Assembly (NCBI GenBank): GCA_001799695.1
Contig: MGTY01000022.1
Span: forward strand, 4,031-68,030
Direction: 5' to 3'
Source: Elusimicrobia bacterium GWA2_69_24
Lineage (GTDB): Bacteria > Elusimicrobiota > Elusimicrobia > UBA1565
Length of the DNA: 64,000 bases
The notes under the pieces are model-generated. The model saw only the letters and a program-made list of their open reading frames with translations. It was not told where the DNA came from and did no database searches. The first letter of the stretch is position 1; each line of letters begins with the position of its first letter. Made by a program: the position numbers and the translations under genes. This document shows positions 9,989 to 32,417 of the stretch, one piece after another.

Positions 9989-10982
9989 GGCTCACCATAG
10001 CACCGGCGAGCTGGTCTCGATCGTCGTCCCGGTCTGCAACGAGGAGGCGAACCTCCCGGAGTTGCGCGCGCGCCTCACGGCCGCGCTGGCGGGCCACGAG
10101 TTCGAGTGCATCCTGGTGGACGACGGCAGCACCGACACCACGGCCGCCCTGGCCCGCGACTTCGCCCGCGAGGATCCGCGCTTCAAGCTCGTGAGCCTCT
10201 CGCGCAACTTCGGCCACCAGGCGGCGATCTTCGCGGGCCTCACCTTCGCGCGCGGCGCCTGCGTGGCGGTGATGGACGGCGACCTCCAGGACCCGCCCGA
10301 GCTGCTCCCCGAGATGCTGCGCCTGCGGGCCAAGGGCACCGAGGTCGTCTACGGCGTCCGCAGCGTGCGCAAGGAGCGCTGGCTCACGCGCGCGCTGGCC
10401 GCCGTCTACTACCGGCTCCTGGCTCGGCTGACCGCGACACGCATGCCGCTCGACGCGGGCGACTTCGCCGTCATGGACCGTCGTGTCGTGGACCTGATCG
10501 TCGCCATCGGCGAGCGCCATCCCTACGTGCGGGGCCTCCGGAGCTGGGTGGGCTTCCGCCAGGTCGCGGTGCCCTATGTGCGCGAGCGCCGCGGCAAGGG
10601 CGAGCCCAAGTACACGCTCTGGAAGCTTCTCGACCTCGCCCTCGCGGGGATCGTCGCGTTCTCGGTCGTACCGCTGCGGCTCGTCGCCCTCGGCGGCGCC
10701 GCGCTCGCGGCGCTCTCCGCCGCCGCTGCGCTTGTGCTCCTGCTCCAGCGGCTGGCGGGCGCGAGCCTCGCCGGCCCGCCCGCGGGCTGGCTGGCCTGGG
10801 CCCTGGTGGCTGCGGGGGGCGTGCTGGGCCTCCAGCTTCTGGTCCTCGGCGTGCTCGGCGAGTACGTGGGGCGAGTCCTCGAGGAGGTCCGGCACCGCCC
10901 GGTCTTCGTCGTCGACGAGGTGGTGGGGCTGGACCGGCTGCCGGTCGCGCCCCGGCGGGATCGGCACCCGCCGCCGGACTGA
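9987..10982 (+). CDS. GT2 polyprenyl-phosphate sugar synthase (ArnC/GtrB/DPM1-like)
   Basis: N-terminal SIVVPVCNEEANL, VDDGSTD, DGDLQDPPE catalytic motifs, and C-terminal TM helices typical of lipid-phosphate sugar synthases. Confidence 0.8.
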   Translation: MAHHSTGELVSIVVPVCNEEANLPELRARLTAALAGHEFECILVDDGSTDTTAALARDFAREDPRFKLVSLSRNFGHQAAIFAGLTFARGACVAVMDGDLQDPPELLPEMLRLRAKGTEVVYGVRSVRKERWLTRALAAVYYRLLARLTATRMPLDAGDFAVMDRRVVDLIVAIGERHPYVRGLRSWVGFRQVAVPYVRERRGKGEPKYTLWKLLDLALAGIVAFSVVPLRLVALGGAALAALSAAAALVLLLQRLAGASLAGPPAGWLAWALVAAGGVLGLQLLVLGVLGEYVGRVLEEVRHRPVFVVDEVVGLDRLPVAPRRDRHPPPD

Positions 10983-11970: not shown

Positions 11971-13707
11971 TCAGCGGTTCGCGTAGAGTCGGCGCGAGCC
12001 GAACTGCCCGAGCGCGCGCACGCTCGTGGCCGGGAGCGCCGCCACCACGCTTCGCGCGGGTGCCTGGCGGATCACCAGGAACACGCGCCGCGGCCCCGCC
12101 CAGAGTCGCCGCAACGCTTGCGTGTCGAGGAACACGCCCTGCGCCTCGGGCAGCTTTGAGGCGAAGGAGAAGTAGCCGACGTCGCCGTTCACGAGGAGCG
12201 CCCGCCGGCCCGTGTAGAAGGGGATGGCCGGACTGTACTCGAGGGAGCCCTCGATCACGATGACGTCGTCCGGCCCGGCCTCGGCCACGATCGCCCGTGA
12301 GACCTCCCGGGCCGAGTGGTGCGGTGCGATCAGCCCGAGGAGCGCGAGCAGGAGACCGGTGATCCCCGCGGCCACCGCCACGAGCGCGCCGAGCGCGCTC
12401 CGGCGCCAGCCGCGCACCCAGCAGAGCGTCGCGATGCCCCAGCCCAGGATCAGCGTCAGCCCCAGCGCCTGCAGGAGCAGGCCGAACGGGCGCGCCGAGG
12501 CGAACGGGAAGGGGACGCCCTGCTCGCGCAGGATGCGGTAGTAGACGTTCAGCTCGGCGAGCCCGGCCATCGCCTGCTCGGGCGTGAGGCCGCCACCGAT
12601 CCAGATCGCTCCGGCGCCGCCCAGCACGGAGCCGACGAGCCCCGCCCCGAGCCAGCGGCCGATGTCGCGTCCGCCGGCCCAGGCCGCGCCGACCAGGATC
12701 GCAAGCGCCGGGAAGGCCGGCAGCGCGTAGTACTCGTGCTTGAAGCGCGAGAGCGAGAAGAGGCCCACGATCACGAGAGCCCAGATGACGATCAGCGGGC
12801 GCCAGCGCGCCTGCGCGGGCGTGCCGGGCGCCAAGCGCGCGAGCACGAAGACGCCCCAGGGGAACGCCCAGAGGAAGCTCGCCACCAGGAAGCCCGCGGT
12901 CGAGATCGGCACGTCGTCCTCGACGAAGCGCCGGGCGTCGAGGAAGCGCAGGAGGTGGTTATCGAGCACGTAGAACCCGAACAGCGTCCCGGAGCGCCAC
13001 GCGGCCAGCGCGTGCCACGGCACCGTGAGCAGCAGGAAGAGCCCGGCGCCGCGCGCTGGGTTCAGGTCGCGCCAGGCGAGCCGGCGCGCCCACGCCATCG
13101 CGAGCCCCACGATCAGCACGGGGAACACGAGCCCGATGAACCCCTTGGCGAGCACGCTGAGAGCGGCGCCGACCCAGAGCCAGAGAAAGCGCGTCCGGCC
13201 GCGATCGGGGCGCTCGGCGTCTCGCACGAAGCCGTAGAGCGCCAGCGTGAGACAGAAGATGAAGAGCTGGTCGGTCGACGCCTTGCGCACGTAGAGCGCG
13301 TTGCCGACGACCGTGGCGACCACGAGCCCCGCCAGGAGCCCCGCCCGGGGGCCGTGGAGGCGCCGCCCGATCCGCCAGGTGAGCAGGGCCGTGCCGAGCG
13401 CCGCCAGCGCCGACCAGAGGCGCGTCGCCCACTCGGACGGACCGGCCACCGCGTAGGTCAGCGCCGTCAGCCAGAAGTAGAGGGGAGGCTTCTCGAGGTA
13501 GGGCAGGCCGTTCACGTGGGGGATGATCCAGTCGCCGCGCGCCAGCATCTCCTGCGCGATCGCGGCGTAGAGGCCTTCGTCGGGGTCGAGCAGGGGCAGC
13601 CGGAGGTCGAAGAAGAGGAAGGGGAGGCTGACGGCTAGCAGCAGGGCAAGGCCGGGGAGACGCGAACCCCCGAGGAGGGCGTCAGCAGCGCTGTCGCTGG
13701 ACCTCAC
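11971..13707 (-). CDS. ArnT/PMT-family GT-C glycosyltransferase (GT83/GT39-like)
   Basis: LDPDEGLYAAIAQEMLARGDWIIPHVNGLPYLEKPPLYFW is the signature of ArnT/PMT_2. About 12 TM segments. GTG start. Confidence 0.8.
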   Translation of the reverse strand: MRSSDSAADALLGGSRLPGLALLLAVSLPFLFFDLRLPLLDPDEGLYAAIAQEMLARGDWIIPHVNGLPYLEKPPLYFWLTALTYAVAGPSEWATRLWSALAALGTALLTWRIGRRLHGPRAGLLAGLVVATVVGNALYVRKASTDQLFIFCLTLALYGFVRDAERPDRGRTRFLWLWVGAALSVLAKGFIGLVFPVLIVGLAMAWARRLAWRDLNPARGAGLFLLLTVPWHALAAWRSGTLFGFYVLDNHLLRFLDARRFVEDDVPISTAGFLVASFLWAFPWGVFVLARLAPGTPAQARWRPLIVIWALVIVGLFSLSRFKHEYYALPAFPALAILVGAAWAGGRDIGRWLGAGLVGSVLGGAGAIWIGGGLTPEQAMAGLAELNVYYRILREQGVPFPFASARPFGLLLQALGLTLILGWGIATLCWVRGWRRSALGALVAVAAGITGLLLALLGLIAPHHSAREVSRAIVAEAGPDDVIVIEGSLEYSPAIPFYTGRRALLVNGDVGYFSFASKLPEAQGVFLDTQALRRLWAGPRRVFLVIRQAPARSVVAALPATSVRALGQFGSRRLYANR

Positions 13708-15840: not shown

Positions 15841-16347
15841 GTGAAGATTCTCGCGCATCGAGCGAACCTGAACGGGCCCGGCAGCGGCGACAACCGCCCG
15901 GAATCCATCCGGGCGTGCCTCGAGCGGGGCGTCGGTGTGGAGGTCGATGTGCTGGGCGTCAATGGGGAGCTCTGGTTCGGACATGACCGGCCAGAACGGA
16001 GGGCCGATGTCGAGCTGCTCGCCAGGGCCGGCGTCATGTGCCACGCGAAGGACATCCAGGCGGCCTCAATCCTCCGCTCGTTGCCTGTCAGCTTCTTCTG
16101 TCTTGGCAGGGACGAGTTCGCCCTCTGCTCGAACGGGCTCATCTGGTCTAATTATGGGTGCATGCCGACGGCGGCATCCATCATGTGCAGTCCGGAGCTG
16201 GTAGGCGCCCCGGAGAGCATCGAGGAATTCTATCCACGAGTGGCGACCGCTTACGGCGTCTGCACGGATCACCCGCTGACGTACGTGAAGCTCCTCGGAC
16301 GTGAGGCCCTAAACGGAATCCTGCTCGAAAGCAGTCCAGACTGGTGA
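15841..16347 (+). CDS. small glycerophosphodiester-phosphodiesterase-like (GDPD-fold) protein
   Basis: N-terminal ILAHRANLNG...DNRPESIRACLERGVGVEVDV resembles the GDPD HRG...ENT...E.D motif. 168 aa. GC is lower than the surroundings. Confidence 0.4.
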   Translation: MKILAHRANLNGPGSGDNRPESIRACLERGVGVEVDVLGVNGELWFGHDRPERRADVELLARAGVMCHAKDIQAASILRSLPVSFFCLGRDEFALCSNGLIWSNYGCMPTAASIMCSPELVGAPESIEEFYPRVATAYGVCTDHPLTYVKLLGREALNGILLESSPDW

Positions 16348-16351: not shown

Positions 16352-17476
16352 ATGCTGAAGGCCATCTATGAGCTGAAGTCGCCCGACATCGAAAAGGCCG
16401 CGCACGCGATCGCCGTGGGCCAGTCGGTGGGGAACCCGTACGTGCGGAACTCGCGGGAGACCAAGGCGCTGGTGAAGAAGCACGCGGCGACGGTCGAGTC
16501 GATCGAGGGCGGCAAGGTCACCGTTCGGTTCCCGGCGGTGAACTTCGGACCGCGCGACGGGATTTCGTTCATGATGAGCGTCCTGATGGGCGGCCAGATG
16601 GATATCGACCTCATCGAGGGGTGCAAGCTCCTGGACGTCGAGTTCGGCCCGCTGCTGCGGCGCTTCTCGGGGCCCCGGTTCGGTCTGGAACAGATCCGCC
16701 AGATGACCGGCGCGGTCGACCGGCCGCTCATCGGCGGCATCGTCAAGCCGAAGATCGGGCTCACGCCCGACGGGCTGGCCGAGGTCTGCCGCGAGATGGC
16801 CGAGGGCGGCGTGGACTTCATCAAGGAGGACGAGATCCTCGGTGATCCGTCCTGGTGCCCGCTCCGGAAGCGCGTGCCGGCGGTGGCGGAGGCCTTGAAG
16901 GGCTTCAGGACCGTGTACGCTCCCTGCATCACGGCGGACGGCGACGAGGTCGTCCGACGGGCCAGGCTCGCGAAGTCACTCGGCGCGACGGCTGTCCACG
17001 TGAACCTCTGGTCCGGTCTCGGGAGCTATGCCAGGATCCGTGAGAAGGTCGAAATCCCGATCTTCTTCCAGAAGAGCGGTGACAAGGTGTTCACCACCGG
17101 CCACCACTCGCTGCAGTTCTCGCTTCTGTGCAAGCTCATCCGCCTGATCGGCTGCGACTTCACGCACGTCGGCATGTGGGGCGGCTACATGAGCGAGCCC
17201 GAGGTGGAGCTGCGGGAGCGCCTGTATGCGCTCCAGGGGCCGTGGTGCGAGCTTCCGAGGGTCGTTCCCAGTTTCTCCTGCGGGGCGCACCCCGGGATGG
17301 TCCAGGCCCTCGTCAAGCGCTTCGGAAACGACATCATGGTGACCTCGGGGGGGGCGATCCACGGGCATCCCCTCGGCACCCGCGCGGGCGCCATGGCGTT
17401 CCGCCAGGCGCTCAGCGCGAGCACGCCGCCGCCGGAGCTGGCGGCCGCGATCGAGGAGTGGGGGCTTGTGCGGTGA
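16352..17476 (+). CDS. RuBisCO-like protein (form IV RLP, RuBisCO large-subunit family)
   Basis: IGGIVKPKIGL (the KPK carbamylation motif) and GGVDFIKEDE (the GGLDFTKDDE equivalent). 374 aa, no small subunit nearby. Confidence 0.8.
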   Translation: MLKAIYELKSPDIEKAAHAIAVGQSVGNPYVRNSRETKALVKKHAATVESIEGGKVTVRFPAVNFGPRDGISFMMSVLMGGQMDIDLIEGCKLLDVEFGPLLRRFSGPRFGLEQIRQMTGAVDRPLIGGIVKPKIGLTPDGLAEVCREMAEGGVDFIKEDEILGDPSWCPLRKRVPAVAEALKGFRTVYAPCITADGDEVVRRARLAKSLGATAVHVNLWSGLGSYARIREKVEIPIFFQKSGDKVFTTGHHSLQFSLLCKLIRLIGCDFTHVGMWGGYMSEPEVELRERLYALQGPWCELPRVVPSFSCGAHPGMVQALVKRFGNDIMVTSGGAIHGHPLGTRAGAMAFRQALSASTPPPELAAAIEEWGLVR

Positions 17477-17496
17477 GGCGGTTCCCTTTTGGTGAG

Positions 17497-17793
17497 ATGA
17501 AGGAGGGTTGGTTCGTCGGCGACTTCGAGCCGACGGCCTACCGGACCCCCGCAGCGGAGGTGTGCTTCAAGCACCACGCGAAGGGGGAAGCGTGGGCGAC
17601 GCACTACCACGCCATGGCGACCGAGATCAACCTCGTGGTGAGGGGCACGATGCGCGCCAACGGTCAGGAGTTCCGGGAGGGGGACATCTTCGTCGTGGAT
17701 CCGGGCGAGGTCATCGCGCCGGAGTTTCTCTCGGATTGTGAGCTCGTCGTGGTGAAGGTCCCGTCCCTTCCGGGGGACAAGTACCCCGCATGA
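17497..17793 (+). CDS. cupin-domain protein
   Basis: About 98 aa. HYHAMATEINLVVRGT...GDIFVVDPGEV matches a cupin barrel. An alternative GTG at 17473 would overlap the RLP stop. Confidence 0.6.
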   Translation: MKEGWFVGDFEPTAYRTPAAEVCFKHHAKGEAWATHYHAMATEINLVVRGTMRANGQEFREGDIFVVDPGEVIAPEFLSDCELVVVKVPSLPGDKYPA

Positions 17794-18572
17794 TCAACGT
17801 CGTGTTCCCGATGGCCGGCCGCGGCCAGCGGTTCGCGCAGCAGGGGTTCCACGGGCCGAAGCCGATGATCGAAGTGCTGGGCAAGCCGCTCATCGAGCAC
17901 GCGCTCGACGGATACACCCTGGAAGGCCGGTACATCTTCGTCGTGCTCCGGGAGCACCTGGCGCTGGGGCTCGGCAGCCTGCTCGCCCGCCTGCGGCCCG
18001 GCGCGACGATCGTTCCGATCGACGAGCTGACGGAGGGACCGGTCTGCACGGTACTCAAGGCGAAGTCGGAGATCGACACGGACGATGAGCTGCTCATCGC
18101 GGACTGTGACTCCGTGCTGGTCTGGCCGGATCGATGGGTCCTGGACTGGTTCAAGCGCCGGGGCGCGACCGGGGGTGTGACGACACGCATCACCACCGAC
18201 CCCGCGTGCTCGTTTGCGGCGCTCGACGAGCATGGATGGGTTCTCGAGACGCGGGAGAAGGACCCGTTCACGATGTTCTCGACAACCGGGCCGTACTGGT
18301 GGAGGCGCGGACGGGACTTCGTCGAAGCCGCGGAGCGGATGATCGCCGCGGATCGGCGGGCGAACGGCGAGTTCTACGTCAATCCCGCGTACAACGACCA
18401 CATCGCGGGCGGCGGACGCGTCCTGGCCTATCCGCTCGCCGAGTTCTGGTCGCTCGGAACGCCCGAGGGCGTGACCGCGTTCGTGAGGGAGCGACGCGGC
18501 GCGGGCGGGTTGAGCCCCGCGTCCGGCGATGGGAGCGCCTCGCGCCGGGTGGCCTCGCCCGCGAGAACTTGA
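17790..18572 (+). CDS. nucleotidyltransferase (sugar-phosphate/phospho-alcohol NTP-transferase, LicC/IspD/GlmU-like fold)
   Basis: ATGA overlap with the cupin stop. N-terminal VVFPMAGRGQRF P-loop of the NTP_transferase family. Confidence 0.7.
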   Translation: MINVVFPMAGRGQRFAQQGFHGPKPMIEVLGKPLIEHALDGYTLEGRYIFVVLREHLALGLGSLLARLRPGATIVPIDELTEGPVCTVLKAKSEIDTDDELLIADCDSVLVWPDRWVLDWFKRRGATGGVTTRITTDPACSFAALDEHGWVLETREKDPFTMFSTTGPYWWRRGRDFVEAAERMIAADRRANGEFYVNPAYNDHIAGGGRVLAYPLAEFWSLGTPEGVTAFVRERRGAGGLSPASGDGSASRRVASPART

Positions 18573-18613: not shown

Positions 18614-20413
18614 ATGGTTGACCTTCTCAGGAAGCTCCTGGCGCTGCTCTCGGCTCGCGAAAAGCTCGGGTTCCTCGGCGTGCTGGGCGGGATGGTCGTC
18701 GCCGCGGGGCTGGAAGCGGTCGGGCTGGGCATTCTGCTCGCGTTTCTCGTGCTTCTTCGCGGTGAGGGGATCCCATCAGGGTACCCCCAGCTCGCGCGGG
18801 TGCTCGAGGTGGTCGGCGCGCCCTCGGGCCCCGCCGCACTCACCTGGCTGAGCCTGGCGGTGCTCGTCTTCTACGTGACGAAGAACGTCTATCTCGGCTG
18901 GCTCTATCACGTCGAGTTCACTATCGTCTACCGGAAGCAGACGGACCTCTCCAAGCGCGTCCTGCGAGCCTACCTGGACAAGCCGTACACGTTCCACCTC
19001 CAGCGGAACACCGCCGAGCTGCTGAAGAACGTGACCGAGGAGGTCCACGCGACCTGCCACAACGTCCTCGTCCCCTTGCTGCTGCTGACCTCCGAGGCGA
19101 TGGTGATCACCGTGATCGTGGGCGCGCTGATGGCCGTCGACCCGGTCGTCACGCTGTCCGTGCTGGTCCTGACGGCGGCGACCGGCTGGACCGTGGTGTC
19201 GCGCGTGCAGCGGAGGCTGAAGGTCCAGGGGCAGGCCAAGCAGCAGTACTTCGAAGCGATGATCAGGTGGGTGAACCAGAGCTTCGGCAGCCTCAAGGAA
19301 ATCACGATCCTCGGCCGCCAGGGCTGGTTCGTGGAGATCTACGGCAGAAGCGCCGCGGGGTTCGGGCACTCCTTGCGCTTCGTCGCCATGGCCCACCAGC
19401 TCCCCCGGCTCGTCATCGAGGCGATGGCCGTCAGCGTCATCGCGTTGACTGTGCTCCTCGTCCAGTGGCAGGGCGGCGGGATCGAGCGCATCATCCCGGT
19501 CCTGGCGCTCTTCGGTCTCGCGGCGGTGCGCCTGATGCCGTCGGCCGGCCGGGTGGCGAGCATGCTCACGATGCTGCGTTACTTCAAGCCCGCGGTCGAC
19601 GTGGTCCATCGCGACCTGGACCTGGACCGGCCGCGTCCGGGCGCCATGCCGCAGCCGGCCGTGCCGACGCGGTACGGGGCACCAGTCCTCCGGCTCGCGC
19701 ACGAGCTGGCCCTGGACGGCGTCTCGTACCGCTTCCCCGGTGCCGAGGCGTGGGTCCTCAAGGACGTCTCGCTCGTGATCAGGAAGGGGGCCCTGGTCGC
19801 GATCGCGGGGCCCTCGGGGGCCGGCAAGACGACGATCCTCGATCTCATCCTGGGATTGCTGACGCCCGACACCGGGCGAGTGCTCGTGGACGGCCGCGAC
19901 GTCCGCGAGAACCTGCGCGCGTGGCAGGCGAACATCGGGTACGTCCCGCAGGTCGCGTACATCCTCGACGACTCGATCAGGCGCAACGTCGCCCTCGGCG
20001 TGCCGGACGCCGAGATCGACGACGAGAGGGTGTGGTGGGCGCTGTGTGGCGCGCAGCTCGAGTCGTTCGCGCAGGCGCTCCCCGGCCGGCTGGACACGCT
20101 CGTCGGGGAGCGCGGCAGCCGGCTGTCCGGCGGCGAGCGCCAGCGCCTCGGCATCGCGCGGGCGCTGTACCATGACCCCGACGTGCTGGTGATGGACGAG
20201 CCCACGTCCGCCCTGGACTACGCGACGGAGCACGAGGTGATCCGCGTGATCGACGCGATGCGAGGGCAGAAGACCGTGCTCGTCGTGGCGCATCGGCTGT
20301 CGACCGTGCGCTCGTGCGACGAGATCTACATGGTCAGGCAGGGGACGGTGTCCGGGCCTCTCCAGTACGGAGACGTCGTCGCCCTCGCGGGCGCCGCCGG
20401 CGACGTCCCGTGA
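18614..20413 (+). CDS. ABC exporter, fused permease + ATPase (MsbA/PglK-like lipid-linked glycan flippase candidate)
   Basis: Six-TM N-terminal domain, then Walker A GPSGAGKTT, ABC signature LSGGERQRLGIARAL, and Walker B VLVMDEPTSALD. Confidence 0.85.
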   Translation: MVDLLRKLLALLSAREKLGFLGVLGGMVVAAGLEAVGLGILLAFLVLLRGEGIPSGYPQLARVLEVVGAPSGPAALTWLSLAVLVFYVTKNVYLGWLYHVEFTIVYRKQTDLSKRVLRAYLDKPYTFHLQRNTAELLKNVTEEVHATCHNVLVPLLLLTSEAMVITVIVGALMAVDPVVTLSVLVLTAATGWTVVSRVQRRLKVQGQAKQQYFEAMIRWVNQSFGSLKEITILGRQGWFVEIYGRSAAGFGHSLRFVAMAHQLPRLVIEAMAVSVIALTVLLVQWQGGGIERIIPVLALFGLAAVRLMPSAGRVASMLTMLRYFKPAVDVVHRDLDLDRPRPGAMPQPAVPTRYGAPVLRLAHELALDGVSYRFPGAEAWVLKDVSLVIRKGALVAIAGPSGAGKTTILDLILGLLTPDTGRVLVDGRDVRENLRAWQANIGYVPQVAYILDDSIRRNVALGVPDAEIDDERVWWALCGAQLESFAQALPGRLDTLVGERGSRLSGGERQRLGIARALYHDPDVLVMDEPTSALDYATEHEVIRVIDAMRGQKTVLVVAHRLSTVRSCDEIYMVRQGTVSGPLQYGDVVALAGAAGDVP

Positions 20414-21459
20414 CGGCGGCGCGCGACTTCGCGCTCGCGATCAGCGCCGACGAGGAGGTGGACGACGTCCGGTTGCTCGTCGACATCTTCCGGCGCAACT
20501 GGACAGGGAGCTTCCACATCGTCGTGTGCGCCGCGAGCGCGGGCGCCGCGGCCGAGATCGGACGCTGCGACGTCGACAGTGTCGCCATCGGCGAAAGCGT
20601 CCGTCTCGAGGCCGACCCGCGTGAGGCGCTCCAGGAGCACATCGCCGGGGCGCTACGCGCGGTGGACGGGATCCGGAAGGCGTGCGGCCTCGCGGCCGGC
20701 TCGAGCGCGCCCTACACGATGCATCTGGCGGCCGGACGCTACCCGCTGGCGTGGGATCCGGTGCGGGCGCTCGGCGAGGGGATGAGGCGGAGGGGCGCGG
20801 TCCTGGCGGCGCGCGGGCAGGGCTTCGGGCTCTACGCGCACGACACCCCGGTGGGACGGTTCGATCCCGCATTCTTCGTCGTCGACAACGCGTTCGCCCG
20901 GGCGAGGCGCCTGTGGGAGTTTTCGCTGGCCGATTTCCTGCCGCACAAAGTGTCCGCGCCCGGGTTCGTCGCGCTCTGGGCGCTGGGGCGCGTGGGGGTG
21001 CACCGGTTCTGGCGCTATGCAGCGGATGACGGCGGCGAAGGTCCGATCGCGTTCGATCCCGCGCGCGGCTTTCTGCGGGTCGACGCCTCGAGGCTTCCGC
21101 CCGACCTGGCGTCCCGACTGGTGGCATCCTACTTCGCCGAGTACGGTGTCACGCGCGGGCCGGCGATCGAGGCGTTTCACGCCCGCTGGGGAGCGGACGC
21201 GGCCGCGGCGAGGGACGAGGCGCGCGCGGTGGGCCGTGGGGCCGGCCGACGCCCCGGCGCCTGGGCCCGGGGACGGGCGTTCCTCAGGGAGCGGCTGGTC
21301 CGTCGCTGGATCTATCGCTACCGGTATGGCGACATGGTATGGCCCCGCGGGCTGGACGACGTGTATCGAGCGGCGTTCGGAGGCGCCGGGCCCGCGCCCG
21401 CCGAGCTCCGGGACGTCTCGTTCGACATGCCGTCTCCTCGGAGGTCCCGCGCGCCGTGA
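20410..21459 (+). CDS. hypothetical protein, tandem paralog 1 (unknown family, FFVVDNAFAR motif)
   Basis: GTGA overlap with the ABC stop. Shares NW.GS..IVVC, RKACG, G.GFG.YA...PVG.FD..FFVVDNAFAR, FLPHK(V/I)S with the next gene. Confidence 0.55.
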   Translation: MTAARDFALAISADEEVDDVRLLVDIFRRNWTGSFHIVVCAASAGAAAEIGRCDVDSVAIGESVRLEADPREALQEHIAGALRAVDGIRKACGLAAGSSAPYTMHLAAGRYPLAWDPVRALGEGMRRRGAVLAARGQGFGLYAHDTPVGRFDPAFFVVDNAFARARRLWEFSLADFLPHKVSAPGFVALWALGRVGVHRFWRYAADDGGEGPIAFDPARGFLRVDASRLPPDLASRLVASYFAEYGVTRGPAIEAFHARWGADAAAARDEARAVGRGAGRRPGAWARGRAFLRERLVRRWIYRYRYGDMVWPRGLDDVYRAAFGGAGPAPAELRDVSFDMPSPRRSRAP

Positions 21460-22652
21460 AGGATCTCGCGATCGCGATCTCGGTCTACGACAAGTTCCAG
21501 GACGTGAAGCTCCTCAGCGACCTGTTCAGGAAGAACTGGCCCGGAAGCTATGATCTCGTCGTCTGCTCTTCCCATCCGCAGGCGGCGTCCCGTCTCGCGG
21601 ACTGCGACATCGACGAGCTGCTGTCGACGGAGAACCTGCCGATGGACGGCCCGGGATCGAGCGACCCACGGGTGTCGCCACGGGCCCGGCTGTGGGTCCG
21701 GGTCATCGACAGCATCCGGAAGGCGTGTGGGCGGTGCGCCGACCGGGCCGAGGCGCCGTTCACGCTCCATCTCCACGCGGACGCGTGCCCGCTGTCCTGG
21801 CCAAAGCTCAGGCGGCTCGCGGAGCGGATGCAGCGTCACGGCAAGTGGTTCGCGGCGCGCGGCGAGGGCTTCGGCTTCTACGCGGTCAACGAGCCCGTCG
21901 GCGGCTTCGACGACATGTTCTTCGTGGTCGACAACGCCTTCGCGCGGGACACGGGCTTCTGGGACTTCGATCCGTTCGACTTCTTGCCCCACAAGATCTC
22001 GATCCACGGGGTGCTCGCGATCCTGGGGCTGACGAGGGTCGGCATCCGGCGCTTCTATCACTACGGGAGCCACACCCGGGCCGTGTACTGGGACGGCAAG
22101 CCGGTCGTGCTGTATCCGCTGAACTCGGCGCATCCGATGTATTTCGACCCCGAAAACTGCTTCCTCCACATTCACGAGAGCGGTTTCCGCGGCGACCTCG
22201 GCGTCCGCCTCAAGGCGCACTACCTGGCGCGGCACGAGGTGACGCGCGGCCAGCACGTGGAGGAATTCCTCGCGAAGTGGCAGACGCCCGAGCCGGAGCT
22301 CTTCGGTGCCCTGGCGGCGAGCGAGGCGGGGCTCCGTCGCTTCTTCCTGCGCCGAGGGCTCTCGCCCGCGGTCTATGGCCGGAACTTCGACCAGATGGCG
22401 GCGTTGCAGGCGGCGTATCTGGGACTGCCGGCCGCCGGCAAGGGCCGGTGGCTCGGCCGCATGCACGCCCAGCAGGCGAAAGGACTGGTCTCGACGTTGG
22501 TGCGCCGGCGGTTCATGCGCGGCCGGATCTTCCGGGACCGCTACCTGGACACGGTCTGGCCCGATCGCCTGGACGACCTGTACGAGTCCGCCTTCGCCTC
22601 GACGGCGCGCGAAGTGAGGGACTTCTCGCTCGACGGCGCGGAATTTCCTTGA
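21456..22652 (+). CDS. hypothetical protein, tandem paralog 2
   Basis: GTGA overlap with the paralog 1 stop. Homologous to paralog 1 over the N-terminal 230 aa, with a longer C-terminal region. Confidence 0.55.
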   Translation: MKDLAIAISVYDKFQDVKLLSDLFRKNWPGSYDLVVCSSHPQAASRLADCDIDELLSTENLPMDGPGSSDPRVSPRARLWVRVIDSIRKACGRCADRAEAPFTLHLHADACPLSWPKLRRLAERMQRHGKWFAARGEGFGFYAVNEPVGGFDDMFFVVDNAFARDTGFWDFDPFDFLPHKISIHGVLAILGLTRVGIRRFYHYGSHTRAVYWDGKPVVLYPLNSAHPMYFDPENCFLHIHESGFRGDLGVRLKAHYLARHEVTRGQHVEEFLAKWQTPEPELFGALAASEAGLRRFFLRRGLSPAVYGRNFDQMAALQAAYLGLPAAGKGRWLGRMHAQQAKGLVSTLVRRRFMRGRIFRDRYLDTVWPDRLDDLYESAFASTAREVRDFSLDGAEFP

Positions 22653-22653
22653 C

Positions 22654-23295
22654 ATGAGCGCAGCCCGTTCTTTACACGAGAAGACAGGCATGACGGCAGA
22701 CTTCACGGAGCGCGCCAGGGCGTACCTGGCGGACGCCCGCGACACGCTGGACCGCATTCCCGTCCAGGTGGTGGAGAAGATCTTCCACGTCCTGTGCGAT
22801 GCCTACCGCGAGGACCGGCAGGTGATCCTGATGGGCAACGGCGGATCCGCCGCGCTGGCTTCGCACTTCGCCGTGGACCTCGGGAAAGGGACGGCGGCCG
22901 CCGGTCGCCGGCGACTGCGTGCCGTCTCGATCGTGGACAACACGCCGGTGATGACCGCGTACGCCAACGACCTGTCGTACGCCGACGTCTTCTCCGAGCA
23001 GATTCGCGCGCTCGCGAAGCGGGGCGACGTCGTCTTCGGCATCTCGGGCAGCGGCAGCTCGCCGAACATCCTGAAGGGGCTCGCGGCTGCCCGTGAAGTG
23101 GGGGCGACCACCGTGGTCCTGACCGGCTACCAGGGGGGCAAGGCCATCGACATGGCCGACGTGACGTTGGTGGTGCCCTCCGACGACATGCAGCACATCG
23201 AGGACTGCCACCTGGCGCTGACGCACCTGTACATGCAGGCGATGCGCGAGGTCGTTCGCGAGTCGCCGATCACCGAGCCGGGCCGCTGCCAGTAA
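22654..23295 (+). CDS. gmhA: D-sedoheptulose-7-phosphate isomerase (SIS domain, GmhA-like)
   Basis: VILMGNGGSAALASHFAVDL and GISGSGSSPNI SIS motifs, about 200 aa. An alternative start lies at ATG 22690. Confidence 0.8.
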   Translation: MSAARSLHEKTGMTADFTERARAYLADARDTLDRIPVQVVEKIFHVLCDAYREDRQVILMGNGGSAALASHFAVDLGKGTAAAGRRRLRAVSIVDNTPVMTAYANDLSYADVFSEQIRALAKRGDVVFGISGSGSSPNILKGLAAAREVGATTVVLTGYQGGKAIDMADVTLVVPSDDMQHIEDCHLALTHLYMQAMREVVRESPITEPGRCQ

Positions 23296-23371
23296 CGGGG
23301 ATCCTCGCCGCGCCTTTGGCGACGTGCGAACATGGTCGCGTGCGAATGACCGCCGTAACGCTCCGTGCCGT

Positions 23372-24373
23372 ATGAAGACGATCGTCACTGGCGGCGCTGG
23401 GTTCATCGGCAGTCACCTGGTCGACCGCCTCCTCAGCGACGGGCACGACGTGACGGTGCTGGACAACTTCAGCACCGGGCGCCCGCAGAATCTCGCCCAG
23501 CACGGAAACAATCCCCGCTTGCGGGTTGTCGAGGCCGACGTGGGGGACTTCGTCGCGATCCGACCCTGTTTCCACGATGCGGAATGGGTCTTTCATCTGG
23601 CCGCGCTTGCCGACATCGTTCCCTCGATCGAGCACCCGCTCGACTATCACCGCGCCAACGTGGACGGCACCGCGAACGTGCTGGAGGCCGCTCGAGCCGT
23701 CGGCGCCCGGCGTGTCCTCTACACCGCCTCGTCGTCCTGTTACGGGATCGCCGACGTGTACCCGACGCCGGAGACGGCGCCGGTTCGTCCCCAGTACCCG
23801 TACGCGCTCACGAAGTACGTGGGTGAGCAGTATGCGCTCCACTGGGCGCAGGTGTACCGGCTGCCCGTCGCGTCGCTGCGGCTCTTCAACGTGTACGGCC
23901 CACGATCCCGGACGTCGGGCACGTACGGGGCGGTGCTGGGCGTGTTCCTCGCCCAGAAGCTCGCCGGCAAGCCGTTCACCGTCGTCGGCGATGGCACTCA
24001 GGTGCGGGATTTCACCTTTGTGACGGACGTCGCGGATGCGTTCCTCACGGTGGCGACTTCCGACGTCCTGGGAGAGGTGTTCAATGTCGGCTCCGGCCAG
24101 CCGGCGAGCGTCAATCGCCTCGTCGAGCTGCTGGGTGGTGAGGCGGTGCACATCCCGAGGCGCCCCGGCGAGCCCGACCGGACGCACGCCGACATCGGCA
24201 AGATCCAGCGCCAGCTCGGCTGGCGCCCGAAGGTGTCGATCGAGGAGGGCCTAGGCAGGGTCCTCTCCCGCATCCAGGACTGGCGCGAGGCGCCGGTGTG
24301 GACACCGGAGTCGATCGCCGTGGCGACCCACGACTGGTTCCGTTACCTGGGGTCCGCAGTGACGGGGGGATGA
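23372..24373 (+). CDS. NAD-dependent epimerase/dehydratase (UDP-sugar 4-epimerase / UXS-like)
   Basis: MKTIVTGGAGFIGSHL Rossmann motif and YALTKYVGE (YxxxK). Confidence 0.8.
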   Translation: MKTIVTGGAGFIGSHLVDRLLSDGHDVTVLDNFSTGRPQNLAQHGNNPRLRVVEADVGDFVAIRPCFHDAEWVFHLAALADIVPSIEHPLDYHRANVDGTANVLEAARAVGARRVLYTASSSCYGIADVYPTPETAPVRPQYPYALTKYVGEQYALHWAQVYRLPVASLRLFNVYGPRSRTSGTYGAVLGVFLAQKLAGKPFTVVGDGTQVRDFTFVTDVADAFLTVATSDVLGEVFNVGSGQPASVNRLVELLGGEAVHIPRRPGEPDRTHADIGKIQRQLGWRPKVSIEEGLGRVLSRIQDWREAPVWTPESIAVATHDWFRYLGSAVTGG

Positions 24374-24381
24374 CGTGAGTG

Positions 24382-25917
24382 ATGGCGACCAATAGCGTCG
24401 ATCGCAAAGTCTGCGCGTTCGCCGAGTTGCAGGACCGGGTGACGAGCGCGCGAGCCGAGGGCAAGCGAATCGTCCTCTGCCATGGCGTCTTCGACCTGAT
24501 CCATCCGGGCCATGTCCTGCACTTCAAGGCGGCGCGCCAGCACGGCGACCTTCTCGTCGTCACGGTCACGCCGGACCAGTTCGTGAACAAGGGGCCCGGC
24601 CGCCCGGTGTTCAACCAGCGCCTGCGCACGGAGACGATCGCGGCCTTCGAGTTCGTCGACTATGTGGCGCTGAATCTCTGGCCCACCGCCGTCGAGACGA
24701 TCGAGCGGCTGCGGCCGGACGTCTACGTCAAGGGAAGCGAGTACGCCGACCCGGCCCGGGACCTGACGGGCATGATCCTTGCCGAAGAGCGGATGGTCCA
24801 GGCCGTCGGCGGCGCGATCGTGTTCACGACCGAGGAGACCTTCAGCTCAAGCAGTCTCATCAACCGTTACTTCAGCAGTCTGCCGACGCCAACGAACGAA
24901 TACTTACGGGGCTTCCGGCAGCGCCATGGGGCCGAGGAGGTGCTGGGGGCTCTGCGGACGCTCAGCGACCTCGACGTGTTGGTCGTCGGCGAGGCGATCC
25001 TCGACGAGTACTGCTACTGCGTCCCCCTGGGGAAAGCTCCCAAGGACACGATGATCGCCACGAGGTACGTGTCCGAGGACCGGTTCGCCGGCGGGTCGCT
25101 GGCCGTGGCCAATCACCTGGCCGGGGTCTGCCGGTCGGTCACGCTGGTGACGTGCCTCGGCACCGACGATGCCCAGGCGGACTTCGTGCGCTCGAAGCTC
25201 AGTGCGAACGTCACCTTGCTGGCGGCCCGGACGACGGACCGTCCGACGATCGTCAAGCGCCGGTACGTCGAAACGACGTTCCTCGCAAAGCTGTTCGAGG
25301 TCCAGTCGCTCGAGGACCGGCCCATCCAGCCCAAGACCGAGCGCGAGATCGTGGAGGCCCTCGGCGATCGCCTGGCCAAGCACGACTTGGTGGTGGTCAC
25401 CGATTTCGGGCACGGGGTGTTCACCGAAGAGATCCGGAAGCTCCTCTGCTCGTCGACCGCGTTCCTCGCTGTCAACACGCAGACGAACAGCGCGAACCTC
25501 GGATTCAACTCGGTGACGAAGTATCAGCGGGCGGATTACGTCTGCCTGCACGAAGGCGAGCTGAAGCTCGCCCTGCGCGCGCAATACGGTGACGTCCGGG
25601 ACCTCGCGACCCGGATCCGAGCCGAGCTGGCCGCCGGCAGCGTGATGGTTACGCGGGGCCCGAACGGCTCCATGCTGTTCACCGAGGACGGGGCGGTGCA
25701 CGAGACGCCAGCCCTGTCGCTCCGGGTGGTGGATCGCACGGGGGCCGGCGACGCGCTCTTTGCGCTCACCGCCCCGTGCGTGTTCCGTGGTGCCGCGCCC
25801 GAGGTGGTCGGTTTCGTGGCGAACTGCGTCGGCGCCCTCGCCGTCGAGATCATCGGTAACCGGGAGCCGGTCGCGCCCGCGGCGTTGAAGAAGTTCATGG
25901 CCCACCTGCTGATGTGA
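24382..25917 (+). CDS. bifunctional heptose-7-P kinase / heptose-1-P nucleotidyltransferase, with domains in the reverse order to E. coli HldE
   Basis: N-terminal cytidylyltransferase-like domain (CHGVFDLIHPGHVLHF). C-terminal PfkB/ribokinase-family domain (TGAGDALFA). E. coli HldE is kinase-N / transferase-C. Confidence 0.7.
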   Translation: MATNSVDRKVCAFAELQDRVTSARAEGKRIVLCHGVFDLIHPGHVLHFKAARQHGDLLVVTVTPDQFVNKGPGRPVFNQRLRTETIAAFEFVDYVALNLWPTAVETIERLRPDVYVKGSEYADPARDLTGMILAEERMVQAVGGAIVFTTEETFSSSSLINRYFSSLPTPTNEYLRGFRQRHGAEEVLGALRTLSDLDVLVVGEAILDEYCYCVPLGKAPKDTMIATRYVSEDRFAGGSLAVANHLAGVCRSVTLVTCLGTDDAQADFVRSKLSANVTLLAARTTDRPTIVKRRYVETTFLAKLFEVQSLEDRPIQPKTEREIVEALGDRLAKHDLVVVTDFGHGVFTEEIRKLLCSSTAFLAVNTQTNSANLGFNSVTKYQRADYVCLHEGELKLALRAQYGDVRDLATRIRAELAAGSVMVTRGPNGSMLFTEDGAVHETPALSLRVVDRTGAGDALFALTAPCVFRGAAPEVVGFVANCVGALAVEIIGNREPVAPAALKKFMAHLLM

Positions 25918-26959: not shown

Positions 26960-27783
26960 GGGACGGCGAGGGTCTCGAAGAGCTCGACCGGATCGCGAGA
27001 GAGATCCGTGGCAGGGTCGTCGAGATGTCGCACCGGGCGAAGACGCCGCACCTCGGGTCGGCCCTCTCCTGCGTGGATATCCTCGTGGCGGTCTACTGGG
27101 CGACGCTCAGAATCGACCCGCGAAACCCGAGGGACCGGGAGCGGGACCGGTTCATCCTGAGCAAGGGCCACGCGGTGAGCGCGCTGTACGCCGCGCTGGC
27201 CTACCGGGGCTTCTTCCCGGTCGCACAACTCGAGACCTTCAACGAGGCGGGGAGCGCTCTGGCGGAGCAACCGAGCCCGGCGTGCGTGGCGGGCCTCGAG
27301 CTGGCGACGGGATCGCTCGGCCACGGGCTCTCGGTGGGGCTGGGCATGGCCTTTGCCGGTCGCCTGGCCGGGCTGCGGCATCGCGTGGTGGTCCTGATGA
27401 GCGATGGCGAGTGCAACGAAGGGTCGGTGTGGGAGGCGGCCCTGCTCGGGGCATCGCTGAAGCTCGGGCAGGTGGCGACGATCGTCGACTACAACAAGTG
27501 GCAGGCCACCGGGCGCAGCAACGAGATCATGGCGCTCGCACCGCTCCGGGAGAAGTGGGAGGCATTCGGATGGAGCGCCTACGAGGTGGATGGTCACGAT
27601 CTCAAGGCGCTCGTCCAGGTCCTCGACAACGTCCCCGACGGCAGCGGCAAGCCGGTGGCCGTCGTGGCGCACACCGTCAAGGGTAAGGGCGTGTCCTTCA
27701 TGGAGGACGACAACAACTGGCACTATCGGAGCCCGACCGCGGAGGAGGTCCGGCAGGCCCGGATCGAGCTCGATCTCGCATGA
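26956..27783 (+). CDS. transketolase, N-terminal (ThDP-binding) subunit of a split transketolase
   Basis: TTGA overlap start. ...HLGSALSCVDILVAVY, GHGLSVGLGMA, and the ThDP motif MSDGECNEGSVWEA. Confidence 0.75.
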   Translation: MRDGEGLEELDRIAREIRGRVVEMSHRAKTPHLGSALSCVDILVAVYWATLRIDPRNPRDRERDRFILSKGHAVSALYAALAYRGFFPVAQLETFNEAGSALAEQPSPACVAGLELATGSLGHGLSVGLGMAFAGRLAGLRHRVVVLMSDGECNEGSVWEAALLGASLKLGQVATIVDYNKWQATGRSNEIMALAPLREKWEAFGWSAYEVDGHDLKALVQVLDNVPDGSGKPVAVVAHTVKGKGVSFMEDDNNWHYRSPTAEEVRQARIELDLA

Positions 27784-28715
27784 GGGACGCGTTTGCGGCC
27801 GAGATCACGGAGCTGGCGACGGAGGACGCGCGCCTCGTCCTGCTTTCGGGCGACATCGGCAACCGGCTCTTCGAGCGCTACAAGCAGCGCCATCCCGACC
27901 GGTTCCTCAACTGCGGCGTCGCCGAGGCCAACATGATCAGCATGGCGGCCGGCATGGCCCTCTCCGGGTTGCGCCCGGTCGCGTACACGATCGCGCCCTT
28001 CGTCACCACGCGCTGCCTGGAGCAGATTCGCGTGGATCTCTGCTACCACAACCTGCCTGTCGTCATCGTTGGCGTGGGCGCTGGCCTCTCCTACGCGTCC
28101 CTGGGGGGTACCCATCACGCGTGTGAGGACATCGCGCTGCTGCGCGTGCTGCCCAACATGAGCATCGTGTGTCCTGGCGACGCGATGGAGGTACGGCTGG
28201 CGATCCGGGCGGCCCTGGGGCAGGAGCGGCCAATCTACATCCGCCTCGGGAAGAAGGGCGAGCCGGCCGTCCACGAGCGCCCGCCGGAGTTCGTGATCGG
28301 CAAGGGGATCGTGCTGCGGCAGGGCAGCGACGTCTGCCTCCTGAGCACGGGCACCGTGCTGCCGCTGGCCCTCGCCGCGGCAACGCGACTCGAGCGCGAC
28401 GGCGTGTCAGCGCAGGTCGTCAGTTTCCACACGGTCAAGCCGCTCGACGAACGCCTGCTGACCGATGTCGCCGGCCGTATTCCGCTCGTCGTCACGATCG
28501 AGGAGCACAGCGTTCTCGGCGGGCTCGGGGGGAGCGTCGCGGAGTGGCTGGCGGATGGGCCGAGCCGCGGCGTGCGCCTCCTCCGCATCGGCACCGCCGA
28601 CGAGTTCATGCACGGCGGAGGTGAGCAGGAGCACGCGCGGGAACACTTCGGGCTCACTGCGGAGAAGGTCGCGGAGCGCACGCTGGCGACGCTGGGCGTG
28701 ATCGGGCGCCGGTAG
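27780..28715 (+). CDS. transketolase, C-terminal (pyrimidine-binding) subunit
   Basis: ATGA overlap. NCGVAEANMISMAAGMA and the C-terminal domain. 311 aa. Confidence 0.8.
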   Translation: MRDAFAAEITELATEDARLVLLSGDIGNRLFERYKQRHPDRFLNCGVAEANMISMAAGMALSGLRPVAYTIAPFVTTRCLEQIRVDLCYHNLPVVIVGVGAGLSYASLGGTHHACEDIALLRVLPNMSIVCPGDAMEVRLAIRAALGQERPIYIRLGKKGEPAVHERPPEFVIGKGIVLRQGSDVCLLSTGTVLPLALAAATRLERDGVSAQVVSFHTVKPLDERLLTDVAGRIPLVVTIEEHSVLGGLGGSVAEWLADGPSRGVRLLRIGTADEFMHGGGEQEHAREHFGLTAEKVAERTLATLGVIGRR

Positions 28716-28718
28716 GGG

Positions 28719-29759
28719 ATGCGGACGCTCGCCGCCGTGCTGGTCGAGACGGGGAGGCCGCTCGTCCTGGCGGAGCTCGAGATACCGCCGCTCAAGCCCG
28801 GGCAGGTGCTGGTCGAGGTCGGCGTCAGCGGCGTGTGCCACACGCAGCTCCTCGAGTGCGACGGGCACCGCGGTGCGGACCCGTTTCTGCCGCATTGCCT
28901 CGGCCACGAAGGGAGCGGCATCGTCCGCGAGGTGGGTCCGGGGGTGGCGAAAGTCGCGCCGGGCGACCGCGTGGTCCTGTCGTGGATGAAGGGCTCCGGC
29001 GCTGACGTGGCGGGCACGGTATACCGCTGGGAAGGGCGTGCCGTCAACGCCGGGGGCATCACCACCTGGAGCCGCCACGCGGTGATCAGCGAAAACCGAC
29101 TCACGCCGCTGCCGGCCGGCGTGCCCCTGCGCGAGGCGGCGCTGCTCGGCTGCGCGGCGCCGACCGGGCTCGGCGCCGTGCTCAACACCGCGCGACCGCG
29201 CCCCGGCGCGACCCTTGCGGTGTTCGGCTGTGGCGGGATCGGCCTCTGTGCCGTCGCCGGCGCAGTGATCGCAGGATGCGCGCGAGTGATCGCCGTGGAT
29301 CTGAACCAGGAGAAGCTCGACCTCGCCAGACAGATGGGCGCGACCGATGCCATCCGGGCCGACCTCACGGAGCCCGTGGCCGAGATCACCCGCTTGTGCG
29401 CGGGAGGTGTCGACGTCGCGATCGAGGCCACGGGCCGTCCGAGCGCCATGGTCCAGGCCTTGCACAGCGTGCGGGGGCAGGGCGGCACAGCCGTGGTCGT
29501 CGGCAACGCGCGCCACGGCGAGCGCGTCGAGATCGACCCGCGCCAGCTCAATCTCGGCAAGCGCCTCCTGGGCACGTGGGGCGGGGACAACTCGCCGGAC
29601 CACGACTTCCCTCGTTATGCCGAGTTGCTGGCCGGCGGCAGGCTCCCCCTCGGCCCGCTTGTCGGGCGGACCTATCGTCTGGCCGACATCAACCAGGCCG
29701 TGGAGGATCTCCGGGCGGGGATCGCCGTGCGGCCGCTCGTCGACCTGGGACTCGGCTGA
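28719..29759 (+). CDS. Zn-dependent alcohol dehydrogenase (MDR family)
   Basis: CLGHEGSGIV zinc ligands, GCGGIGLCAV Rossmann motif. 346 aa. Confidence 0.8.
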   Translation: MRTLAAVLVETGRPLVLAELEIPPLKPGQVLVEVGVSGVCHTQLLECDGHRGADPFLPHCLGHEGSGIVREVGPGVAKVAPGDRVVLSWMKGSGADVAGTVYRWEGRAVNAGGITTWSRHAVISENRLTPLPAGVPLREAALLGCAAPTGLGAVLNTARPRPGATLAVFGCGGIGLCAVAGAVIAGCARVIAVDLNQEKLDLARQMGATDAIRADLTEPVAEITRLCAGGVDVAIEATGRPSAMVQALHSVRGQGGTAVVVGNARHGERVEIDPRQLNLGKRLLGTWGGDNSPDHDFPRYAELLAGGRLPLGPLVGRTYRLADINQAVEDLRAGIAVRPLVDLGLG

Positions 29760-29768
29760 GGGCGGACC

Positions 29769-30392
29769 GTGGTGATCGGGATCGACTTCGACAACACCGT
29801 CGTCTGCTACGACGAGGTCTTCCACCGGACGGCGCGCGGCTGGGGCCTGATCCCCGTGAACGTCCCGACGGGCAAGGGCATGGTCCGCGACTACCTGCGC
29901 GAACGCGGGAGGGAAGACGACTGGACGCGACTTCAGGGCCACGTGTACGGTGCGACGATTCTCGAGGCCCCTGCCTTCCCGGGCGTCCTCGAGTTCCTCG
30001 CGGCCTGCAGAGACCGGCGTATGGCCGTCCACATCATCAGTCACAAGACACTCCGGCCGGTCCTCGGCGAGCCCCGCGATCTGCATCGCGCCGCCCACGA
30101 GTGGCTCGAGGCGCGGGGATTCTACGACACGGCGCGCACGGGGCTGTCACGGGAGGACGTCCACTTCGAGCTGACGAAAGAGGCCAAGCTCGCGCGCATC
30201 GGACGTGTCGGGTGCACGCATTTCGTGGACGATCTGCCGGAGTTCCTCCTCGATCCCGGTTTCCCGGTGGGCGTCCGGCGGATCCTGTTCGACCCGAACG
30301 GTGGCCATGTGGGGCCGGCGGATCTCGATCGCGCCGCGTCCTGGAGCGAGATCGGCGACCTCGTGCTGCGCGCCGGCTCGGCGTCACGGTGA
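29769..30392 (+). CDS. HAD-superfamily hydrolase (candidate sugar-phosphate phosphatase, GmhB-like role)
   Basis: N-terminal VIGIDFDNTVV (DxDxT-type motif I). About 207 aa. GTG start. Confidence 0.5.
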   Translation: MVIGIDFDNTVVCYDEVFHRTARGWGLIPVNVPTGKGMVRDYLRERGREDDWTRLQGHVYGATILEAPAFPGVLEFLAACRDRRMAVHIISHKTLRPVLGEPRDLHRAAHEWLEARGFYDTARTGLSREDVHFELTKEAKLARIGRVGCTHFVDDLPEFLLDPGFPVGVRRILFDPNGGHVGPADLDRAASWSEIGDLVLRAGSASR

Positions 30393-32406: not shown

Positions 32407-32417
32407 CAGGGGTAACC

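Follow-up and report, generated by a model that had tools for sequence, protein, structure and literature searches.

A coupled gene pair downstream of a PglK-like exporter

We analyzed two adjacent genes, here called paralogs A and B, that encode proteins of an unrecognized family in Elusimicrobia bacterium GWA2_69_24. The genes lie on a 64,000-nucleotide stretch of contig MGTY01000022.1 (assembly GCA_001799695.1, positions 4,031 to 68,030), which as a whole is referred to as the window and supplies the coordinates used below. They stand between a gene for an ATP-binding cassette (ABC) exporter and genes for sugar precursors:

18614..20413, + strand: ABC half-transporter, PglK-like, with a transmembrane domain (TMD) and a nucleotide-binding domain (NBD); Pfam ABC_membrane and ABC_tran
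20410..21459, + strand: paralog A, 349 amino acids, a degenerate family member
21456..22652, + strand: paralog B, 398 amino acids, an intact family member
22654..25917, + strand: GmhA-like sedoheptulose-7-phosphate isomerase, short-chain dehydrogenase/reductase (SDR) epimerase/dehydratase and HldE-like bifunctional enzyme (Pfam, NCBIfam)
24379..25917, + strand: the HldE-like protein of this set, with the nucleotidyltransferase domain N-terminal and the PfkB kinase domain C-terminal

A preliminary description of the window, prepared without database searches, had reported that the two reading frames are chained by GTGA overlaps to the exporter and to each other, and the sequence confirms this. 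The start of A overlaps the exporter stop by 4 nt (...cccGTGAcgg, 20410-20413), and the start of B overlaps the stop of A by 4 nt (...gccGTGAagg, 21456-21459). Both starts are GTG, and a GGAGG lies ~10 nt 5' of that of B. A gene call by the Joint Genome Institute on the same contig (metagenome 3300025308) independently yields identical 349- and 398-residue products, and the GC content at third codon positions (GC3; 0.85 for A, 0.89 for B) shows the bias of real genes in a 70% GC genome. The preliminary description had named out-of-frame artefacts as a way in which its reading might fail; both frames are clearly conserved in related genomes. An artefact or pseudogene is ruled out for A and B by the GC3 bias, the independent calls, orthologs that are 60-77% identical, and ratios of nonsynonymous to synonymous substitution rates (dN/dS) below 1. 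No transmembrane segment is predicted in either protein (maximum 19-residue Kyte-Doolittle mean ~1.25), and by inspection, with no predictor run, neither N-terminus resembles a signal peptide, as had been noted earlier.

The exporter, previously described as flippase-like, finds its best full-length match in PglK in both NCBIfam (NF050066, E 6e-84, residues 4-577) and the PDB (5c73, E 4e-73). It shares the TMD-NBD half-transporter architecture of PglK/Wzk-type flippases for lipid-linked oligosaccharides but differs from them in scoring 282 bits against a 1000-bit equivalog cut-off, and the MsbA and HepA models score nearly as high. By these matches, the exporter is a relative and not an equivalog. 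On the other side of the pair, the sugar-precursor genes of the earlier account are recovered by Pfam and NCBIfam as the GmhA-like, epimerase/dehydratase and HldE-like genes. The domain order of the HldE-like protein is the reverse of that in E. coli HldE and is conserved in two related loci (L001 and L002); another SDR epimerase gene follows it.

A rare family without curated relatives

A and B are 38% identical over essentially their full lengths (BLASTP, E 1e-77), a similarity far beyond chance that identifies them as full-length paralogs at the sequence level. All of the motifs previously quoted for the two proteins were found (NW.GS, IRKACG, ARG.GFG.YA...PVG.FD..FFVVDNAFAR and DFLPHK.S). 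The shared core of ~230 residues proposed on that basis captured real similarity but was drawn too narrowly: the alignment covers the whole lengths and extends into the C-terminal helical region, with two insertions in B.

Scanned against Pfam and NCBIfam (E≤1), A and B matched no family. Searches of PDB sequences with phmmer and with a family profile (hmmsearch) returned nothing meaningful, the sole profile matches being chance alignments in the helical tail. The proteins thus belong to an unrecognized family and carry no recognizable known motif, as first described. A word-indexed search of 5.8 billion proteins retrieved 11 relatives, and a second such search with a broad profile added 2 proteins. 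Scanning 1.84 billion cluster representatives in full with a HMMER profile retrieved 165 at E≤1e-3, 95 of them at E≤1e-30. Among GTDB genomes, a locus search with a narrow alignment placed the family only in metagenome-assembled genomes (MAGs) of Marinamargulisbacteria and Elusimicrobia (4 loci); outside Elusimicrobia, members so far come from Marinamargulisbacteria and from uncultured metagenome contigs without an assigned taxonomy. It is a genuine but rare family. Per-member analyses below use a 77-sequence family alignment, and residues carry B numbering.

Known glycosyltransferase (GT) families were not reached at the sequence level. PF00535 (Glycos_transf_2) had no match to A or B at E≤1 and matched two of the 77 members only at E≥0.027. 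Sub-threshold echoes of Glyco_tranf_2_5 or Glycos_transf_2 appeared in 6/77 members (Pfam, E≤10), one of them over the region of the HAD motif described below. With hhalign, the family profile gave a probability of 0.3% against a 25-sequence GT2 profile and <1% against individual GT2 proteins encoded in the window; with an approximate glycogenin sequence as the query, it likewise found nothing (<1%). Glyco_transf_8 (PF01501) matched neither A, B nor, among the Pfam families listed, any of the 77 members, and the same holds for the Pfam NTP_transferase and NTP_transf_3 families. Membership in GT2 or GT8 was therefore rejected at the sequence level, no Pfam threshold having been reached and all hhalign probabilities lying below 1%. 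No Stealth model (CR1-CR4) stood among the 25 Pfam families listed, of 50 reported, for the 77 members (E≤10), and none was found for A or B.

In one retrieved protein, P0005 (369 residues), a C-terminal portion of A runs into an N-terminal portion of B, with 98% identity where the sequences align. A frameshift or a mis-called gene in a different assembly is a more probable origin than a natural fusion.

Both paralogs are predicted to adopt a GT-A fold

Given an 11-sequence alignment, AlphaFold2 modeled B with a mean predicted local distance difference test score (pLDDT) of 81 and a predicted template modeling score (pTM) of 0.80; the model of A has values of 76 and 0.76. The preliminary description had suggested a search for a GT-A, GT-B or Stealth-like fold. 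Foldseek run on these models points to GT-A for both paralogs. For B, 189 PDB matches were obtained at E≤1e-3, and the best 50 of the 189 were all GT-A-fold GTs or nucleotidyltransferases of the same fold. The GTs included GnT-I (1.5e-6), WrtF, the GT domains of LH3 and COLGALT1, glycogenin, GtrB and hyaluronan synthase. For A, 221 matches were obtained at the same threshold, led by glycogenin (GT8, E 3.7e-7) and including WrtF, GnT-I, XXYLT1 and GTA/GTB. No Stealth structure stood among the best 50 matches of either protein. On these models, A and B would adopt the GT-A fold of the nucleotide-diphospho-sugar transferase superfamily. We file the family under this fold and not under GT2 or GT8 because a sequence link to known GT families is undetectable.

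The structural alignments cover ~190-240 N-terminal residues. B is predicted to consist of a GT-A-like domain (residues 1-245) followed by a basic helical domain (246-398); this C-terminal region of ~150 residues (pI 10) had no structural match in Foldseek against the PDB. The predicted elements of the GT-A-like domain run beta1-alpha-beta2-alpha-beta3-long alpha-beta4, with H107-A-D109 at the end of beta4. The study of WrtF, an O-polysaccharide fucosyltransferase of Rhizobium tropici (PDB 9omh), puts the DxD motif after beta4, where WrtF itself has GAD, and indicates that GT-A enzymes can act without a canonical DxD or a metal (PMC12595478). By predicted secondary structure, the HAD of B would lie at this position, which would give both proteins an xAD where DxD is expected.

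WrtF resembles the A/B family in predicted fold (Foldseek E ~2e-6, TM-score ~0.45-0.49 when normalized to WrtF) and its gene likewise belongs to a surface-polysaccharide operon that includes an ABC exporter. WrtF differs in several respects. Sequence similarity is undetectable, and the A/B family adds the basic helical domain of ~150 residues. The conserved set of H107, D153, H184 and H238 and the presence of a degenerate paralog are features of the A/B family. The exporter is Wzm/Wzt in the WrtF system, as opposed to a PglK-type half-transporter here.

GT8 enzymes, marked by DxD and HxxGxxKPW motifs, bind Mn2+ through the DxD and a C-terminal His. Their structures are among the top matches of A and score strongly with B, and the A/B family has H-A-D together with a conserved H238 on a later predicted strand. 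The first Asp of the DxD is, however, replaced by His or Gln in the A/B family, and no GT8 profile matches. GT2 enzymes begin with a strand-loop of the pattern vSVviPtYN, which the N-terminal AISVYDKF of the A/B family resembles; they share the GT-A fold as predicted here, and GtrB is among the structural matches. Against this, no A/B-family member reaches a GT2 Pfam threshold, and the profile-profile comparison is as given above.

Five conserved polar residues are retained in B and lost in A

An alignment of orthologs had been proposed as a route to invariant acidic residues. Across the 77 sequences, no column is strictly invariant. Columns conserved in ≥90% of members are D53, R82, H107, D109, L113, G149, D153, F155, H184, Y203, P227, H238 and L257. 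B keeps every one of these columns, and H105 as well. Residues 107-109 read H/Q/N-A/S-D in B and in 73/77 members; in A they read A-A-G. A also lacks the insertion that carries D213. In total, five polar residues conserved in >90% of members are gone from A (H107A, D109G, D153P, H184P and H238R), while N27-W28, R135-G-x-G138, D152, N160, D175 and P178-H-K180 are retained.

P0013 (upstream paralog of L003/L004), P0015 (L017) and two of the four copies in L016 have likewise lost these five residues. The replacements differ among these degenerate copies (A/K/R; G; P/S; P/G/Q/N; and R/Q/K/Y/E at the respective positions). All five degenerate copies, from four loci (the window, L003/4, L016 with two, and L017), adjoin an intact copy, mostly through 4-nt overlaps.

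Between the window and L003, the A-type orthologs are 60% identical with a dN/dS of ~0.43 and the B-type orthologs 77% identical with a dN/dS of ~0.16, values read from a dS that is near saturation and codon-biased at 70% GC. As judged from these sequences, the constraint on A looks relaxed yet still purifying. A neighbor-joining tree, built without bootstrap, groups the degenerate copies together with the intact P0006 (upstream paralog of L001) as their sister and places B-type copies in a separate clade, a topology suggesting that the gene duplicated long ago and that the site later decayed in one branch.

Cosmc with T-synthase and GtfB with GtfA are examples, from other GT families, of non-catalytic GT paralogs that partner an active enzyme. 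By analogy, A would be a constrained paralog that keeps the fold without the conserved site residues and is encoded beside an intact copy, the presumed enzyme B. The correspondence is at the level of concept, and it differs in that L001 carries two intact copies. We read A as a non-catalytic partner because the fold is kept but five conserved polar residues are lost, and on this analogy we regard such a role as the more likely one for A.

Family members occur in surface-glycan assembly loci

Every locus examined represents a surface-glycan assembly setting, and the family gene often lies just after a gene for an ABC- or Wzx-type flippase. The exporter-then-paralog order is found in the window, L001 and L003. 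Nearly the whole block of the window, including exporter, A and B, recurs in L001 (a 445-kb MAG contig) and partly in L003, and GmhA-like, epimerase and HldE-like genes flank the pair in L001 as well. Genes for nucleoside triphosphate (NTP) transferases lie directly 5' of family members in L001, L011, L012 and L018. In L011 and L012, a single family gene follows a haloacid dehalogenase (HAD) gene and two or three NTP transferase genes, in loci with GT4, Wzy_C and DegT. Distant members (~22% identity) in L013-L015 directly follow a Wzx flippase gene with a 4-nt overlap, in Wza/Wzz loci. Three further arrangements were recorded:

L013 7871..11807, L014 5441..9368, and L015: a distant member, then a conserved 385-residue protein of no family, then Hepar_II_III_C (heparinase-like)
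L016 2800..7448: four tandem coupled paralogs in the order intact (HHD), degenerate, degenerate, intact (NQD)
L018 8001..10103: P0046, a 700-residue fusion of a family domain to a second domain with a DDD motif

The 385-residue protein was considered as a family member and rejected. The L016 array, on a metagenomic contig, is preceded by genes for an SDR, a C-methyltransferase and DUF6016. P0046 is not a tandem fusion of two family domains, as its C-terminal half has no match to the family hidden Markov model; this second domain weakly matches the GT-A enzyme KfiA (PDB 5z8b, E 0.037). L018 is an exosortase-type exopolysaccharide locus that also encodes Wzy_C, Bac_transf, EpsH/EpsI and four proteins of GT4 type (Glycos_transf_1; one is a weak match).

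In the window, A and B sit within a co-directional block (14190-33080) of ~20 precursor and export genes in which they are the only transferase candidates. By elimination, they would attach the product of the block, since no other plausible transferase is encoded in this 14-33 kb region. The gene order opens with a GDSL hydrolase and continues as follows:

15841..16347, + strand: 168-residue protein, no family
16352..17476, + strand: RuBisCO large-chain-like protein (Pfam E 5e-42)
17455..17793, + strand: small cupin
17790..18572, + strand: MobA-like NTP transferase (Pfam NTP_transf_3), just 5' of the exporter gene
~26980..33080, + strand: split transketolase (N and C), Zn-alcohol dehydrogenase, 207-residue HAD-like protein, APH-type kinase, dTDP-glucose-4,6-dehydratase-like SDR and methyltransferase

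The first four of these genes are also present as a set in L001 (1195..3924), and the MobA-like enzyme could supply a nucleotide-activated donor. The ~26980..33080 block, which is present in L001 too, has the appearance of a pathway for making an unusual activated sugar or alditol; its 207-residue HAD-like protein has no family match.

Proposed function and alternative explanations

We favor, with somewhat better than even confidence, a reading in which B is a GT-A glycosyltransferase of a new family acting on a lipid-linked glycan and A is its non-catalytic partner. The preliminary description had proposed a novel transferase of an unrecognized family beside the flippase, which is the best reading of the predicted GT-A fold, the conservation and the glycan context of every locus examined. 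Its extension to both duplicated genes agrees with fold and context and requires amendment in one respect: A lacks five conserved residues, so that the two are not equivalent transferases and one of them (A) is probably not an enzyme.

We infer catalytic activity, metal use, donor and acceptor, membrane association, and an A-B interaction from fold, residue pattern and synteny. B would be a cytoplasmic, probably membrane-peripheral transferase, held at the membrane by its basic helical C-terminal domain. Its putative binding site comprises D53, D153, H184, H238 and the H107-A-D109 loop, which is predicted to lie where DxD is canonically found, with a divalent metal probable. There it may bind a nucleotide-activated sugar made by products of neighboring genes, a modified heptose produced by the GmhA/HldE-like/epimerase set being the most plausible candidate, and add this sugar to a glycan linked to polyprenyl-phosphate (or -diphosphate) at the inner membrane face. 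A would be an ancient duplicate that keeps the fold and surface motifs (NW, RGxGFGxY and DFLPHK) and may serve as a scaffold, stabilizer or acceptor-binding subunit of B. The PglK-like exporter, translationally coupled to A and B, would then flip the finished lipid-linked glycan.

Several observations weigh against this proposal. The fold assignment depends on predicted structures, the TM-scores are modest (~0.3 query-normalized, 0.45-0.5 target-normalized), and the same-fold nucleotidyltransferases FbiD (6bwg) and KdsB (2y6p) are also among the Foldseek matches of B (E ~1e-5). Neither sequence nor profile searches tied the family to a curated GT family (Pfam, NCBIfam; hhalign against GT2). 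The motif is HAD or QAD in place of DxD, and the conserved His cluster is unusual for a GT-A enzyme. As to the partner role of A, the sample of degenerate copies is small and the dN/dS values carry the dS saturation noted above. L001 has two intact copies and zero degenerate ones; a dead partner is therefore not obligatory or universal. Lastly, WrtF shows that a GT-A enzyme can work without a canonical DxD, so that A might still be active.

The His-rich conserved site is atypical for glycosyl transfer. B, and perhaps A, might be a phosphotransferase on a GT-A scaffold that moves a sugar-1-phosphate or an alditol- or glycerol-phosphate from a cytidine diphosphate (CDP) or other nucleotide-diphosphate donor onto the glycan, in a role like that of Stealth, LicD or TagF on another scaffold. 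Close members lie directly 3' of NTP-transferase sets with a HAD phosphatase and a GDPD-like protein (L001, L011 and L012). The Zn-alcohol dehydrogenase, split transketolase, APH-type kinase and HAD-like protein of the window make up a gene set reminiscent of the CDP-alditol pathways (TarI/TarJ). We nonetheless consider this explanation unlikely. Sequence searches matched no known phosphotransferase family, and all top structural neighbors are glycosyl- or nucleotidyl-transferases. Distant members reside in ordinary Wzx/Wzy loci with UDP-ManNAcA genes and without CDP-type genes. The phosphotransferase or Stealth-like option, which the preliminary description had entertained, has no direct support, no Stealth family standing among the Pfam matches listed for the 77 members.

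A slightly less likely explanation is that A and B are both active GTs that add two different residues in turn, the site of A being divergent and metal-independent. Tandem arrays of 2-4 paralogs do look like the runs in which GT genes usually occur, A retains the predicted GT-A fold under purifying selection, and WrtF offers a precedent for activity without a canonical DxD or metal (PMC12595478). However, A has lost H107, D109, D153, H184 and H238 simultaneously, and the varied replacements in independent degenerate copies fit relaxation as opposed to a new conserved catalytic solution. Nonsynonymous evolution of A is also ~2x faster.

We hold it improbable that the proteins are not transferases but use a borrowed GT-A scaffold as a metal-dependent hydrolase or modifying enzyme, or as an exporter adaptor that binds glycan or terminates chains. 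The His-rich site, the failure of Pfam and hhalign to link the family to GTs, and the tight coupling to two unrelated flippase types (ABC and Wzx) would fit such a role. The structural neighbors give it no precedent, though, a wzx-then-GT gene order is commonplace, and the operon in the window would be left without a transferase for its products. That A and B are nucleotidyltransferases of the MobA/KdsB/FbiD type activating a sugar or acid is very improbable despite the FbiD and KdsB matches, in that the sequence after beta1 (SVYDKF) is not the glycine-rich GxGxR nucleotide loop by which such enzymes are recognized, genuine NTP transferases (one to three) are already encoded next door, and the Foldseek lists are dominated by glycosyltransferases.

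Returning to B as a transferase with A as its partner, a bolder version can be sketched, which we offer as speculation and regard as unlikely. The family might represent a new catalytic class on the GT-A scaffold with a His-rich metal centre (H107/H184/H238 plus D109/D153). A live/dead heteromer docked on the flippase would install a non-glycosidic or rare substituent, such as an alditol- or sugar-phosphate or something produced by the adjacent RuBisCO-like/transketolase pathway, as the last cytoplasmic step that licenses export.

Implications

If B is a transferase partnered by A, the pair would represent a new family of glycosyltransferases that Pfam, NCBIfam and the PDB all lack. Its novel traits would be the altered donor-site motif, the extra basic helical domain and the recurrent pairing of live and dead paralogs. 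The assignment would supply the transferase otherwise missing from a glycan operon that is conserved in Elusimicrobia and other lineages, give an example from bacteria of glycan assembly with pseudo-enzyme partners, and allow better annotation of ~165 protein clusters now labelled hypothetical. The operon is further distinguished by unusual precursor genes, namely the RuBisCO-like protein, the split transketolase and the domain-swapped HldE-like enzyme. The pair is not a new biological principle or kind of system, as the fold, genomic setting and likely chemistry are familiar.

Additional features of the window

The wider window encodes Wzi, UppS, two polyprenyl-phosphate GT2/PMT_2 pairs, C-methyltransferases, DegT and a UDP-GlcNAc 2-epimerase. 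We regard the window as an envelope-glycan region because of its Wzi, UppS, GT2/PMT_2, DegT and epimerase genes, among them:

2998..4725, - strand: Wzi capsule-assembly outer-membrane homolog (E 7e-75)
4751..5557, - strand: undecaprenyl-diphosphate synthase, adjoining the Wzi homolog
9987..10982, + strand, and 11971..13707, - strand: first pair of polyprenyl-phosphate GT2 and PMT_2/ArnT-like GT-C (NCBIfam ArnT E 2e-32 for 11971..13707)
38580..39368, - strand, and 40900..42891, + strand: second pair of polyprenyl-phosphate GT2 and PMT_2/ArnT-like GT-C

The presence of a Wzi homolog in an Elusimicrobia MAG speaks for a capsule-like polymer at the cell surface, and the GT2/GT-C pairs suggest extra periplasmic glycosylation from polyprenyl-phosphate sugars in the same region. 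A RuBisCO-like protein inside a surface-glycan cluster is unusual; the best NCBIfam matches of the protein (type III RuBisCO, MtnW enolase and OiaX decarboxylase) are far under their cut-offs. Three other sizeable reading frames, 5575..7131 (+), 47912..49183 (+) and 9383..9988 (-), show a strong GC3 bias typical of coding sequence (0.95-0.97) and have no Pfam family.

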